Source: Candidatus Zhuqueibacterota bacterium (lineage in GTDB: Bacteria > Zhuqueibacterota > Zhuqueibacteria > Thermofontimicrobiales > Thermofontimicrobiaceae). From it: DNA of 62,346 nucleotides. The position numbers and the translations under genes are program-made. Below, piece by piece: positions 25,342 through 30,413 of the stretch. The DNA lies in the NCBI GenBank assembly GCA_016783825.1, contig JADHVV010000004.1, positions 1-62,346 on the forward strand. Direction: 5' to 3'. The notes below the pieces were generated by a model. The model saw only the letters and a program-made list of their open reading frames with translations, was not told where the DNA came from and searched no databases. Numbering within the stretch: the stretch's first letter is position 1; every line of letters starts with the position of its first letter.

Positions 25342-26763
25342 ATGACTACAACTTGGAATGACAAACCACGAGAAGAATGCGCTGTAATGGGTGTTCACAA
25401 CCACCCCAACGCAGCTAATTTTGTTTACCTGGGGCTGTATTCGCTGCAGCACCGCGGGCAGGAAAGCTCCGGTATTGTAACGAATGATAAGGGCACATTT
25501 TATAAACACGTCGATATGGGTTTAGTGGCTGATGTCTATTCCAAAACTTCGGATATGGAAAGATTAATTGGCAACATTGCCATCGGTCACAACAGGTATT
25601 CGACTACCGGGAAAGTCAAGAAGGTAAATGCACAGCCATTCGTCGTCAGTTCAAAGTACGGTCCAATGGCAATTGCCCATAATGGTAATTTAGTAAATTC
25701 ACAATTTCTTCGGCGTCAATTGGAAGATGAAGGGGCAATTTTTCAAACAACCACTGATACGGAAATTGTCCTGCATTTGATCGCACGGTCTAAAAAGGGA
25801 AAAATGATCGAAAAGGTCATTGATTCATTGGATCAAATTAAAGGGGCATTTTCCCTGGCAATCATGACGCGGAAAAAATTAATCGGAGCGAGAGATCCCA
25901 GGGGATTCCGTCCCCTCTGCATTGGGAAAAAAGATGGCGCGTACATTTTAGCATCTGAATCGTGCGCTTTTGATATTTTGGATGCTGAATACATCAGGGA
26001 AGTTGAGCCAGGTGAGGTAGTTGTTTTTGATAAAGACGGAATGTCAACTTACAGGTTGACGGAAAAAGCGGAAAATAGTGGCTGTGTTTTTGAGTACATC
26101 TATTTTTCACGACCGGACAGTCGCATATTTGGAGAAAAAGTTGACAAAGCCCGTCGTAAGCTTGGTAAAATGCTGGCGCTTGAAAAACCGGTTGATGCTG
26201 ACAGGATCATCCCCGTCCCGGATTCAAGCAATACAGCGGCACTGGGTTATGCACAAGAAGCCGACATCCGTTTTGAGATTGGTCTCATCAGGAATCATTA
26301 TATCGGCAGAACTTTTATTCATCCGGTTCAATCTATGCGCGATTTTAATGTGCGCATCAAATTTAATACTGTCAAAGGTGTGTTAAAAAATAAACGTATC
26401 GTTCTCATTGAAGACTCAATCGTTCGGGGAACTACCCTGAAACATTTAGTAAGAATGGTTCGTAATGCGGGTGCTGAAGAAATTCATGTGCGTGTCAGTT
26501 CTCCGCCAATTCTTTATCCGTGTTATTATGGCATGGATTTCCCGACAAAGGAGGAGCTAATCGCCTCCTGCATGACTATCGAGAAAATGAGAAAATATTT
26601 AGAAGTGGACTCATTACATTATCTATCGCTTGACGGATTATTAAACTCGGTGCCTCAAAAAAATTGTAGTTATTGTACAGCATGTTTCAGCGGTGAATAC
26701 CCAATTACCCCGGATCATAAAGCGATTAAATTTCAATTAGAGGATGGGATTGTAACCGATTAA
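25342..26763 (+). CDS. purF: Amidophosphoribosyltransferase
   Basis: N-terminal nucleophile context ECAVMGV, then LQHRGQESSGI, the PRPP loop VLIEDSIVRGTT and the Cys-rich C-terminus CYYGMDFP...CTACFSGEYP. Confidence 0.95.
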   Translation: MTTTWNDKPREECAVMGVHNHPNAANFVYLGLYSLQHRGQESSGIVTNDKGTFYKHVDMGLVADVYSKTSDMERLIGNIAIGHNRYSTTGKVKKVNAQPFVVSSKYGPMAIAHNGNLVNSQFLRRQLEDEGAIFQTTTDTEIVLHLIARSKKGKMIEKVIDSLDQIKGAFSLAIMTRKKLIGARDPRGFRPLCIGKKDGAYILASESCAFDILDAEYIREVEPGEVVVFDKDGMSTYRLTEKAENSGCVFEYIYFSRPDSRIFGEKVDKARRKLGKMLALEKPVDADRIIPVPDSSNTAALGYAQEADIRFEIGLIRNHYIGRTFIHPVQSMRDFNVRIKFNTVKGVLKNKRIVLIEDSIVRGTTLKHLVRMVRNAGAEEIHVRVSSPPILYPCYYGMDFPTKEELIASCMTIEKMRKYLEVDSLHYLSLDGLLNSVPQKNCSYCTACFSGEYPITPDHKAIKFQLEDGIVTD

Positions 26764-26967: not shown

Positions 26968-27924
26968 ATGTTCAAAGTCCCATTAAAGTATGTAAAACCG
27001 TTTGACTATTTATTTATCCTTCGTCCTACGTTGTTTTTCCCAATCTGGATAATGATGCTTGCCGGGTATTCGGGTTTTTACACATTTAATGGAGAAGACA
27101 AATGGTTTTCGTTTTTCACCGATTGGATTTCGGTGTTAAATTTCTTACTCATCACGCTTGTTTCCGGCGCTGTTTTTATTCTCAATCAATTAGAAGATAT
27201 TGAAACTGACAAAGACAATCAAAAGCTGTTTCTTATTTCCGAATCTTATGTCCGACAGAAAACAGCACAGACGATTGCCTTTATTATTATTTCTGTTTCG
27301 CTAATCATCTTTCTCGTGGAAGATATTTACCTGTTTTTAATAAACAGTTTAAATGTTCTGTTTTGCGGATATTTATATAATTATAAACCGTTTTGCTGGA
27401 AAGACCTGCCTTTTCTCGGTGTCTTTATCAATATAGTTGGCGGTCTGTTCCTTTTTTTAAGTGGGTGGATAATTGCCGGATTTGGGCAGTGGAAAGCGTT
27501 TATTTATGTGATACCATACCTTTGTGCGTGGGGAACTGTCATGCTGTTAACGACTATTCCCGATCTTAAAGGGGATAAGTTACATGATAAAATAACCTTT
27601 GCCGCGCGTTTTGGTATCAAAAAAACTATTTGGACGGCAACAATTTGGGTGTTGTTTGGATTCATTGTAGGAATTTTTAATAAAGATTACCTTGTTATTT
27701 ATTCAATTGTTTTATCAATTCCAATATTTGTTATAATGGTATTCAAGCCAACTCAGGCCTGGATTTTTGCATGTATCAGATATCCAATGCTTTTTATCGC
27801 TCTTTTGCTCTGTCTTAAATTCCCGTTGTTTTTCTTTGTGCTGTTGGTCAATTACTATATTTCTAAAGTTTATTATATTTCAAGATTTGGGTTGGATTAC
27901 CCAACGTTTAAAGTTAAGGAGTAG
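26968..27924 (+). CDS. UbiA-family integral-membrane prenyltransferase
   Basis: About 8-9 TM helices. The first Asp-rich motif is NQLEDIETDKDN and the second acidic region is DLKGDKLHDKITF. Confidence 0.8.
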   Translation: MFKVPLKYVKPFDYLFILRPTLFFPIWIMMLAGYSGFYTFNGEDKWFSFFTDWISVLNFLLITLVSGAVFILNQLEDIETDKDNQKLFLISESYVRQKTAQTIAFIIISVSLIIFLVEDIYLFLINSLNVLFCGYLYNYKPFCWKDLPFLGVFINIVGGLFLFLSGWIIAGFGQWKAFIYVIPYLCAWGTVMLLTTIPDLKGDKLHDKITFAARFGIKKTIWTATIWVLFGFIVGIFNKDYLVIYSIVLSIPIFVIMVFKPTQAWIFACIRYPMLFIALLLCLKFPLFFFVLLVNYYISKVYYISRFGLDYPTFKVKE

Positions 27925-27929
27925 CATTA

Positions 27930-28103
27930 ATGATAAAGATCAAAAAAGATTTGTGTGATTTTTGTGGAACCTGTGTCTCAGTTTGTCCTGATGATGCGAT
28001 TGAGTTATTTGAAACAAGGGTGATAATTAATAATGAAATATGTACGGATTGTTTGAGATGTGTAAAAGTATGTCCTTTTGATGTATTGGAGGCTGGATCA
28101 TGA
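27930..28103 (+). CDS. 2x[4Fe-4S] ferredoxin, 57 aa (not in the supplied ORF track)
   Basis: My own translation gives MIKIKKDLCDFCGTCVSVCPDDAIELFETRVIINNEICTDCLRCVKVCPFDVLEAGS, with two CxxCxxCxxxCP motifs. The stop TGA overlaps the ATG of the next gene (ATGA). Confidence 0.85.
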   Translation: MIKIKKDLCDFCGTCVSVCPDDAIELFETRVIINNEICTDCLRCVKVCPFDVLEAGS

Positions 28104-29272
28104 AAGATTATTATGATGTGATAGTTGTTGGCGGCGGTCCTACCGGATCAACAGCAGCCAGGCTTGCTGCTGAAGGCGGCGTAAAAGTTCTTTTATTGGA
28201 GAAAGATCGTGAGATCGGAATACCTGTACGCTGCGGTGAAGCAGTGGGAGAAAAGGGAATTAGTAAAATAGTGGAACTCAAAGAAGAATGGATTGCTAAT
28301 CATATTAAAGGCCTCCGTTTGGTTGCTCCGGATGGTACAAAAGTCAAAGTCCATCACGAAGATGTGGGATTCGTGTTAGATCGAAAACGATTTGATTATG
28401 ATCTTGCAATGAACGCGGCTAATGCCGGGGCGGAGGTTGTAACAAAAGCTTATGCATTTGGTTTGTTAACAGAAAATGGGACTGTAACAGGCGTTAAGGT
28501 TCAATATATAGGAAAACAATATGATATCCGTTCAAAAATTGTCATCGGTGCAGATGGTGTGGAATCACGTGTAGGACGTTGGGCTGGATTGAAAACAAAT
28601 CTAAAATTAAAAGATGTTGAAACCTGCGCTCAAATGACAGCTACCAATATAAATATTGATCAAAATTACTGTGATTTCTATTTCTCTTCTGATATAGCGC
28701 CAGGTGGTTATCTCTGGGTGTTTCCGAAAAATAAAAATACAGCCAATATAGGCTTGGGTTTGGCAGGCGATAAAGCTCAAAATAAATCACCATTATCATA
28801 TTTAAAAGATTTTATGAAGAGTAATTTCCCGGATGCTTCTGTTTTAACAACTGTTGCCGGTGGTGTGCCGGTTGCGCCTTACACGGAAAACATAGTGAGT
28901 AACGGTTTGATGTTAGTCGGCGATGCTGCGCACCAATCGAATCCGATTTCAGGGGGCGGAATTGTTCTGGGAATGTTAGCTGCTCAAATTGCAGGGAGAA
29001 TTGCTTCTGAAGCTGTAAAAGAAAACAATGTGAGCGAACAAAGATTGTCACAATATGTAAAGGAATGGGAAAAGGCAGGTGGAAGTAACCATCGGCGGGC
29101 ATATCGACTCAAAGAAAGTGTGGCTAAATTAACAGATGATGACTTGAACAAAACAGCCGCAGCCATCCAAAAAAAGCCGGAAGATAAACATACGGTAGTT
29201 AATATTTTTAAAGCCGCTTTGATAAATCAGCCCAAATTAATTCCGGATATTTTTAAGATATTTTTGGGGTAG
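28100..29272 (+). CDS. FAD-dependent geranylgeranyl reductase family oxidoreductase
   Basis: YDVIVVGGGPTGSTAA dinucleotide fold, PVRCGEAVG and LVGDAAHQSNPISGGGI. Confidence 0.85.
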   Translation: MKDYYDVIVVGGGPTGSTAARLAAEGGVKVLLLEKDREIGIPVRCGEAVGEKGISKIVELKEEWIANHIKGLRLVAPDGTKVKVHHEDVGFVLDRKRFDYDLAMNAANAGAEVVTKAYAFGLLTENGTVTGVKVQYIGKQYDIRSKIVIGADGVESRVGRWAGLKTNLKLKDVETCAQMTATNINIDQNYCDFYFSSDIAPGGYLWVFPKNKNTANIGLGLAGDKAQNKSPLSYLKDFMKSNFPDASVLTTVAGGVPVAPYTENIVSNGLMLVGDAAHQSNPISGGGIVLGMLAAQIAGRIASEAVKENNVSEQRLSQYVKEWEKAGGSNHRRAYRLKESVAKLTDDDLNKTAAAIQKKPEDKHTVVNIFKAALINQPKLIPDIFKIFLG

Positions 29273-29483: not shown

Positions 29484-30413
29484 ATGATCAGTAAACTTAA
29501 ACAAAAGTTATCCAGGACCCGGGAAGGAATTGTTGGCAAAGTGAAAGCCTCAGTAAGTTCCCGCAAAGAGATAAATGAAGATTTGTATGAAGAGCTTGAA
29601 GAAATATTGATCAGTGGTGATTTGGGCGTAGATCTCTCACTGAATATGATTGAAGAAATCAGGGAAAAAGTAACGGATTTAGGTGTTAAAAAACCTGAAA
29701 ATATAATCAAGTTTTTTAAGAGCGCCATGTTAAAAACGTTAGATGGCGAATCAAGCAAAGTACAACCGAAAATTAATGATTCATATTTTTCACCTGGAAT
29801 AAAACCTTATGTAATAATGGTGGTTGGTGTGAACGGCACTGGAAAAACGACCACGATAGGTAAACTTGCGGCACATTTCTGCCGTCATAATAAAAAGGTT
29901 CTCCTCTCGGCAGCAGATACCTTTCGAGCTGCGGCGTCCGAGCAATTGGAAATCTGGGCAAAGCGCGCCGGGGTGGATATTATTCGTAATCAACCGGGAG
30001 CAGACCCGGCTGCGGTTGCCTTTGATTCTTTGCAGGCGGCAACCAGCCGGGACGTTGACGTTTTGATTGTGGATACGGCAGGTCGTTTACATACAAAGTC
30101 AAATCTAATGGAAGAATTAAAAAAGATACACCGCGTGCTTGGAAAAGTAATTCCAGAAGCGCCGCATGAAACGCTTTTAGTATTGGACGCGACTACCGGA
30201 CAAAATGGTTTAAACCAGGCAAAACAGTTCACCCAGGCAGTTGGTGTAAATGGAATTGTTTTAACGAAACTGGACGGCACTGCAAAGGGGGGCATCGTTC
30301 TTTCTATCTCGAACGAGTTGGGATTACCTGTTAAATTTATTGGCGTGGGGGAGCAGGTCGATGATTTGGAATCCTTTGATTCAACCGAATTTATTGAGGC
30401 GTTGTTTCAATGA
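29484..30413 (+). CDS. ftsY: Signal recognition particle receptor FtsY (short form, no acidic A domain)
   Basis: GVNGTGKTTTIGKLA, DTAGRLH, TKLDGTAKGG and PVKFIGVGE. Confidence 0.95.
   Translation: MISKLKQKLSRTREGIVGKVKASVSSRKEINEDLYEELEEILISGDLGVDLSLNMIEEIREKVTDLGVKKPENIIKFFKSAMLKTLDGESSKVQPKINDSYFSPGIKPYVIMVVGVNGTGKTTTIGKLAAHFCRHNKKVLLSAADTFRAAASEQLEIWAKRAGVDIIRNQPGADPAAVAFDSLQAATSRDVDVLIVDTAGRLHTKSNLMEELKKIHRVLGKVIPEAPHETLLVLDATTGQNGLNQAKQFTQAVGVNGIVLTKLDGTAKGGIVLSISNELGLPVKFIGVGEQVDDLESFDSTEFIEALFQ

Follow-up and report, generated by a model that had tools for sequence, protein, structure and literature searches.

A UbiA prenyltransferase-ferredoxin-geranylgeranyl reductase operon in a Zhuqueibacterota bacterium and its possible part in archaeal-like lipid synthesis

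The lipid divide, with ether-isoprenoid membranes in archaea and ester-acyl membranes in bacteria, is a central problem of early cell evolution, and FCB-group (Fibrobacteres-Chlorobi-Bacteroidetes) bacteria are the foremost candidates in nature for membranes of mixed type. What has been published on these bacteria rests on geranylgeranylglyceryl phosphate synthase (GGGPS), digeranylgeranylglyceryl phosphate synthase (DGGGPS) and geranylgeranyl reductase (GGR). Here we ask which reaction is served by a membrane prenyltransferase of the UbiA superfamily (P0001) that is encoded together with a small ferredoxin (P0002) and a GGR (P0003) in a Candidatus Zhuqueibacterota bacterium. The window we analyzed is a contig of 62,346 nucleotides (JADHVV010000004.1 of assembly GCA_016783825.1, our contig C128) from a 4.54-Mb genome that is 82.8% complete in 260 contigs. 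Judged by homolog names, the phylum is KSB1-like, the named homologs closest to the GGGPS and GGR of this genome coming from candidate division KSB1/Zhuqueibacterota and Calditrichaeota (65-76% identity).

The three genes lie between purF and ftsY as one coupled operon. The UbiA stop codon (TAG, 27922-27924) and the ferredoxin ATG at 27930 are separated by a 5-nt spacer preceded by AAGGAG, while the ferredoxin TGA and the GGR ATG overlap as ATGA (28100-28103), with GGAGG ahead of the overlap. The three coupled genes described by an earlier model-made reading of the letters alone (hereafter the sequence-only reading) are all present as open reading frames on the plus strand. Such an arrangement is not a matter of chance, since the same order recurs in 43 of the 50 informative loci of the phylum, spread over about 24 families. 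Our general reading, to which we give a probability of roughly 0.6, is that the UbiA protein attaches a geranylgeranyl group to a different acceptor from the one used by DGGGPS, likely a glycerol-based lipid, and that the ferredoxin and the GGR would then saturate the chains.

The role of the second and third genes as a ferredoxin-driven prenyl-chain reductase of archaeal type is well supported by sequence comparison. P0002 matches Fer4 with 56 bits and carries the CxxCxxCxxxCP cysteines twice (C9/12/15/19 and C38/41/44/48). P0003 scores 234.1 bits on TIGR02032 (cut-off 158.8) and 100 bits on GGR_cat, PF22578 (cut-off 27), and displays the motifs defined for this family in PMC10821996, namely the catalytic cysteine (C44, in VRCGEAVG), the cavity motif PxxYxWxFP (here PGGYLWVFP) and LxGD (here LVGDAAHQ). 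Its nearest solved structure is the digeranylgeranylglycerophospholipid reductase of Thermoplasma acidophilum (3oz2; 274 bits, E 2e-80), which aligns over the full length and has the catalytic cysteine, PxxYxWxFP and LxGD in common with it. For the Thermoplasma enzyme, NADPH use in vitro has been reported (PMC10821996), whereas the GGR gene of the window is translationally coupled to that of a ferredoxin. P0003 remains below the equivalog cut-offs of NF041160 (286.6 versus 780 bits) and NF041080 (199 versus 580), but both models were built for single archaeal orders, so that a score below them carries little information on function.

Scanning species genomes with the GGR returned six loci, five of them in Methanosarcinaceae, with GGRs at 45-46% identity, and one a partial match in a metagenome-assembled genome of Oceanospirillaceae. 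In all four full-length Methanosarcinaceae loci, a 2x[4Fe-4S] ferredoxin of 57-60 amino acids lies directly upstream of the GGR gene with a 4-nt overlap; these GGRs are 45-48% identical to P0003 along their whole length and the ferredoxins 38-47% identical to P0002. Moreover, the ferredoxin-adjacent GGR was the top match (360-382 bits) in 4/4 Methanosarcinales genomes, the other GGR paralogs scoring 198 bits or less. The two functions are even fused into a single protein of 474-476 amino acids in two metagenome contigs (L149:3715-5139 and L151:6850-8280), with the Fer4 domains at the N-terminus and GGR_cat beyond, and the fused gene has a canonical DGGGPS on one side and a GGGPS on the other.

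In Methanosarcina acetivorans, the ferredoxin MA_1485 is required to activate the adjacent GGR MA_1484 in ether-lipid saturation (Isobe et al. 2014, as cited in PMC8941075 and PMC10821996). The window pair resembles MA_1484/MA_1485 in gene order, ferredoxin size and the 4-nt overlap, a comparison made in Methanosarcinaceae relatives of M. acetivorans, and differs from it in that the host is a bacterium. It also sits after a UbiA gene, unlike the four full-length archaeal loci, where no UbiA gene is adjacent. Homology of the ferredoxin-GGR pair, as a unit, to the Methanosarcina pair is strongly supported by these sequence comparisons, and by analogy P0002 is presumed to be the dedicated electron donor of the GGR. 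The suggestions of the sequence-only reading that this GGR belongs with the archaeal lipid reductases and that its ferredoxin is co-encoded as in archaea are hence borne out, the former by the match to 3oz2 and the best match in Methanosarcinales, the latter by order, size, overlap and identity.

What does the UbiA protein itself do? P0001 scores 73.2 bits on PF01040 (cut-off 34.2), and its AlphaFold2 model (pLDDT 92) consists of an N-terminal amphipathic helix and a transmembrane bundle. Two Asp-rich motifs are conserved in its family, NQLEDIETD (N73-x3-D77-x3-D81) and DLKGDKLHD (D199-x3-D203-x3-D207). Since both of these Mg2+/diphosphate motifs and the UbiA fold are kept, P0001 is probably an active membrane prenyltransferase.

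Taken by itself, P0001 has its nearest characterized relatives in the DGGGPS/ChlG part of the superfamily. With Foldseek, its model matched best the archaeal DGGGP synthase MjDGGGPS (6m31; E 3e-6, TM-scores 0.63/0.70, 22% identity), with AfUbiA also among the best, and MjDGGGPS was the sole match in a single-sequence search of the PDB (E 1e-6). The family profile of P0001 matched AfUbiA with 60 bits, MjDGGGPS with 55, chlorophyll synthase with 51.8 and decaprenyl-phosphate phosphoribosyltransferase (DPPR) synthase with 29 bits, and had no match to UBIAD1 or ApUbiA chains. The best NCBIfam matches of P0001 reached about 40 bits, far under their cut-offs, among them the HPT model with 38.5 bits; the DGGGPS model NF009521 gave 39.5 bits (cut-off 296) and the MenA model TIGR00751 21.5 bits (cut-off 102). 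A single-sequence phmmer comparison with the archaeal UbiA paralogs was uninformative. We also considered P0001 as a quinone enzyme of the MenA/UbiA type. The MenA score, a separate MenA in the genome and the lack of a match to UBIAD1 or ApUbiA rule this out, and neither the model scores, the family profile nor the tree described below places P0001 with such enzymes, a clustering that the sequence-only reading had asked to be checked.

The P0001 family comprises 392 clusters at 50% identity with E<1e-30, and its named members and Atlas neighbors come from Marinimicrobia/Fidelibacterota, KSB1, Calditrichaeota, WOR-3, Zixibacteria, Fibrobacterota and Bacteroidota. Within the family, the allele of the window looks xenologous: its closest named relatives are labelled Marinimicrobia/Neomarinimicrobiota (48-57% identity, one subclade with support 99), and identity is only 33-40% with alleles from the GTDB family to which it belongs and from genomes labelled KSB1. 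The adjacent GGR and the unlinked GGGPS, unlike P0001, track KSB1/Calditrichaeota at the 65-76% mentioned above. In-situ replacement of one gene in a conserved operon, or very fast evolution, are possible causes of this divergence.

The sequence-only reading had implied a DGGGP synthase role for the UbiA gene, and here our results depart from it. All of the 30 relatives searched, 13 of them from the same family, carry a separate gene that scores 180-245 bits on NF009521 and aligns from end to end, while their P0001-type genes reach 26-44 bits on the same model. An IQ-TREE phylogeny built from 77 UbiA sequences puts the 35 rows of the P0001 family on one side of a branch with support 99, and the canonical bacterial genes form a clade with support 99 that is grouped with, and nested among, 25 DGGGPS of Halobacteriota (SH-aLRT 92). 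This tree comes from a quick search and has Halobacteriota as its only archaea, with no references from TACK or Cloacimonetes. By hhalign, the P0001-type group and the canonical DGGGPS-like bacterial group share 18% identity. Compared with archaeal DGGGP synthase (EC 2.5.1.42; MjDGGGPS, 6m31/7bpu, NF009521/NF009522), P0001 thus retains the closest fold match, but it differs in its low identity and model score, in its separate clade and in that its relatives have an orthologue of that enzyme besides. The separate canonical gene, the tree and the co-occurrence of both types in single operons rule P0001 out as a DGGGPS orthologue; the family forms an uncharacterized clade of FCB and related phyla instead. 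As for the canonical clade, we infer that it corresponds to the DGGGPS verified in Cloacimonetes, because of its high scores on the DGGGPS model and its co-localization with GGGPS at loci where the two genes adjoin or lie near each other (L200, L192 and L194); cluster look-ups returned no Cloacimonetes name.

The operons that join both UbiA types came from scanning metagenomes with an alignment of canonical DGGGPS, which yielded 80 loci. In L198, bamA-skp-lpxD are followed by a P0001-type gene, canonical DGGGPS, ferredoxin, GGR and GGGPS. L188 shows a P0001-type gene, DGGGPS and ferredoxin before the contig ends, and in L151 a P0001-type gene and two more genes precede DGGGPS, the fused ferredoxin::GGR gene and GGGPS, a cluster that recurs in L149 with the upstream part missing. 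Because both prenyltransferases share an operon with archaeal-like lipid genes, the P0001 type would be an additional function of the pathway, neither a stand-in for DGGGPS nor unrelated to it. This arrangement argues for an additional prenyl-transfer step linked to the archaeal-like lipid pathway.

The cassette is also widespread in its own phylum, which we surveyed in 167 species genomes (105 of high quality; the unpublished G158 and G162 enter the phylum tallies only). A P0001 homolog is present in 159/167 of them (102/105 of high quality) and a PcrB/GGGPS-family gene in 156/167 (103/105); in no case is the latter linked to the UbiA gene. The UbiA-ferredoxin-GGR order usually lies between purF and ftsY, and purF adjoins the UbiA gene in most loci; compared with the window, UbiA identity ranges over 28-40%, ferredoxin identity over 42-72% and GGR identity over 45-68%. 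In most relatives, a PgsA-like CDP-alcohol phosphatidyltransferase of 183-204 amino acids stands between the GGR gene and ftsY, and where the ferredoxin and GGR are missing it directly follows the UbiA gene. An apparent purF-UbiA fusion in one family proved to be an artefact of long open frames in GC-rich DNA.

Elsewhere in the genome, the GGGPS for which the sequence-only reading had proposed to search is present on contig C253 (TIGR01769, 217 bits, cut-off 161.6; NF003198, 295 bits, cut-off 247). There are two polyprenyl synthases, one an IdsA/GGPPS-like short-chain enzyme and the other HepT-like, and the only other UbiA-family gene is MenA (110 bits). GGGPS, GGR and a short-chain prenyl synthase therefore co-occur in this genome. 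The GGGPS gene may also have a conserved neighborhood: two distantly related genomes of the phylum encode a second PgsA-like CDP-alcohol phosphatidyltransferase (134-143 bits, PF01066) at a distance of 7-8 kb from GGGPS (G147:C4:627620-636944 and G002:C128:178296-186348).

Taken together, a pathway may be proposed in which P0001 would transfer a C20 prenyl group from geranylgeranyl diphosphate (GGPP) to an acceptor other than that of DGGGPS. A different acceptor would be in keeping with the reported clustering of UbiA enzymes by acceptor (Hemmi 2004, as cited in PMC9385802). A glycerol-based (phospho)lipid intermediate seems the most likely acceptor, because a PgsA-like head-group transferase follows the UbiA gene in most relatives, with or without the ferredoxin and GGR. 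By analogy with the Methanosarcina pair, electrons would pass from the [4Fe-4S] ferredoxin to the GGR's FAD, and the GGR would hydrogenate C=C bonds of the geranylgeranyl chains on the lipid. With the unlinked GGGPS and the IdsA/GGPPS-like synthase, the cell could then make saturated archaeal-like isoprenoid glycerolipids beside its fatty-acid lipids. The sequence-only reading had likewise proposed that the cassette prenylates an acceptor and then saturates the chain; its idea of saturated isoprenoid, archaeal-like chemistry holds and agrees with PMC7852524 and PMC6431249, while the use of the UbiA protein as DGGGPS is not supported.

Several observations weigh against this reading. Searches of the bacterium's own genome, 82.8% complete, by family and by protein did not recover a canonical DGGGPS, nor was glycerol-1-phosphate (G1P) dehydrogenase found, which the sequence-only reading had also wished to see searched for, the Fe-ADH_2 matches being aroB and ordinary alcohol dehydrogenases; CarS was not found either. 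The PgsA-like gene of the operon type is missing from the window and has no close copy in the assembled genome. At six phylum loci, the UbiA gene lacks an adjacent ferredoxin-GGR pair (L053, L059-L061, L074 and L082, in G090, G147, G139, G154, G036 and G037). Five such genomes were searched: two have a GGR orthologue elsewhere, two (G139 and G147) only a paralogue with 31-32% identity, and G154 has no GGR at E<=1e-30. Because some families keep the UbiA gene without an adjacent ferredoxin and GGR, the UbiA step would not depend strictly on this reductase, and in such lineages the chains may stay unsaturated, or a different reductase may act on them. Moreover, gene adjacency is circumstantial evidence, and an acceptor other than a glycerolipid is compatible with everything we found for P0001. 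In Ca. Cloacimonetes, G1P dehydrogenase and CarS were likewise not found, according to PMC7852524.

The place where a canonical DGGGPS might be expected can be compared directly. In a relative of the same family (G120, L114), the canonical gene comes after two conserved small genes; in the genome studied here (C209:632-3157), the same two small genes are followed by an unrelated gene for a product of 497 amino acids on the opposite strand, and no canonical DGGGPS occurs at this site.

This situation invites the explanation that P0001 is the working DGGGP synthase here, forming the second ether bond on geranylgeranylglyceryl phosphate, so that the cassette and GGGPS would be a complete core pathway, perhaps after loss of the canonical gene. 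MjDGGGPS is the best solved match both by single sequence and by Foldseek, the canonical gene was not found, its syntenic site is occupied by another gene, and the window's UbiA allele is divergent within the family (36-40% identity, against 65-68% for the GGR). We nevertheless hold this explanation to be unlikely: every relative searched carries a canonical DGGGPS besides the P0001 type, single operons hold both and so the two are not simply redundant, P0001 falls far under the DGGGPS model cut-off and outside the DGGGPS clade, UbiA enzymes reportedly group according to their acceptors (Hemmi 2004, as cited in PMC9385802), and the 17% incompleteness of the genome could by itself explain the missing gene.

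A bolder reading, which we advance tentatively and consider less probable than even odds, is that the P0001 clade catalyzes a step of archaeal-like lipid synthesis without a textbook archaeal counterpart. It might prenylate a lysolipid of bacterial type (acyl- or glycerol-3-phosphate-based) or a head group, giving hybrid or tri-substituted isoprenoid glycerolipids that the ferredoxin and GGR would saturate; in this lineage, it might even stand in for the canonical DGGGPS.

Pairs of a UbiA enzyme and a GGR-family reductase are known for chlorophyll, tocopherol and menaquinone, and the cassette might by the same token make a tail-reduced prenylated small molecule, a quinone-, tocopherol-, pigment- or phenazine-like cofactor, comparable to the products of ChlG/HPT with ChlP or MenA with MenJ. 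The scores of the family profile against chlorophyll synthase and of P0001 on the HPT model are in line with this, and the pairing of another UbiA paralogue with a weaker GGR paralogue in four Methanosarcinales genomes indicates that non-lipid pairs occur. However, the GGR is an orthologue of the ferredoxin-coupled lipid GGR rather than of ChlP, MenJ or the archaeal paralogs, the genome has its separate MenA, the relatives place a PgsA-like phospholipid head-group transferase after the gene, the metagenome operons group the P0001 type with GGGPS and canonical DGGGPS, and the operon is devoid of aromatic-precursor genes; we regard a cofactor product as quite improbable. The UbiA superfamily also includes DPPR synthase, and P0001 could in principle take a diphosphate other than a prenyl one as donor, or a lipid phosphate as acceptor, in envelope glycan or carrier-lipid synthesis, with the GGR saturating a dolichol-like carrier. 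The L198 and L151 clusters, which follow bamA-skp-lpxD and include a polysaccharide deacetylase and a pyruvyl-transferase-like gene, would suit such a role, as would the conserved upstream neighbor purF, whose product uses phosphoribosyl pyrophosphate. Yet the weak profile match to DPPR synthase (29 bits) is much inferior to those to DGGGPS, AfUbiA and ChlG, purF and ftsY are housekeeping genes, and the operon of the phylum contains no conserved glycosyltransferase, which leaves very little room for this explanation.

The reading we prefer, prenyl transfer to a probably glycerol-based acceptor followed by saturation, extends a gene set that is partly known. GGGPS and DGGGPS occur in all 12 FCB-group phyla surveyed by Coleman et al. 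(2019; PMC6431249), and a further study verified the enzymes of Ca. Cloacimonetes in Escherichia coli and noted euryarchaeal-like GGRs (Villanueva et al. 2021; PMC7852524). With this set, the present genome shares GGGPS, an archaeal-type GGR and the IdsA/GGPPS-like synthase, and its relatives also share a canonical DGGGPS-like gene. It differs in that the UbiA protein of the cassette is a third, uncharacterized prenyltransferase, that the GGGPS is unlinked, and that the operon adds a dedicated ferredoxin, those of the relatives adding the PgsA-like gene too. In the literature we searched, including the accessible portions of PMC7852524 and PMC6431249, we found no description of the extra UbiA clade or of a UbiA-ferredoxin-GGR(-PgsA-like) operon. 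Hence, the archaeal-like lipid gene set of the FCB group was known already, and the extra UbiA clade in the pathway is apparently new.

This locus and its relatives bring a third element into the published picture, a conserved and widespread prenyltransferase. Its gene is physically coupled to that of a ferredoxin-driven reductase, and in many cases to one for a head-group enzyme of PgsA type, which suggests that the reaction is an extra or alternative one. The pairing with the GGR also marks the ferredoxin as the probable native electron donor of bacterial GGRs, which would be useful for producing fully saturated archaeal lipids in bacteria. If the P0001 step indeed lacks an archaeal counterpart, FCB and related bacteria would make an undescribed class of lipids, and the cassette would offer a genetic handle on it.

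The features of the locus are collected in Table 1. The downstream flank also includes rimO, and both flanks consist of housekeeping genes; promoter and terminator scans gave nothing above the shuffled expectation.

Table 1. Genes of the operon and its conserved neighbors, in window coordinates
Feature	Position	Strand	Basis
UbiA-superfamily membrane prenyltransferase (P0001, 318 aa)	26968..27924	+	PF01040
2x[4Fe-4S] ferredoxin (P0002, 57 aa)	27930..28103	+	Fer4, two CxxCxxCxxxCP motifs
Geranylgeranyl (prenyl) reductase GGR, predicted archaeal lipid type (P0003, 390 aa)	28100..29272	+	TIGR02032, PF22578
purF (amidophosphoribosyltransferase), conserved upstream neighbor; context only, outside the module	25342..26763	+	TIGR01134, 529 bits
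ftsY, conserved downstream neighbor; context only	29484..30413	+	TIGR00064, 366 bits

Some further observations were made alongside. On contig C43 of the same genome (G000), the gene directly upstream of a MenA-like prenyltransferase (L002:1444-2358) codes for a radical SAM protein that binds B12 and matches TIGR04190, 'Ta0216', below the cut-off (349 bits, cut-off 500; L002:137-1210); it may modify the quinone or an isoprenoid chain. At a Methanolobus locus, an open reading frame that had been taken as a tetraether synthase candidate turned out to be TrkH. Finally, in 4/4 Methanosarcinales genomes, a non-DGGGPS UbiA gene and a weak GGR paralogue (96-132 bits to P0003) are adjacent as a conserved pair (G167:C1:1639561-1641476, G168:C201:9211-11129, G191:C5:15168-17137 and G180:C1:702801-704732), which, as our guess, may act on the tail of a cofactor, for example methanophenazine.

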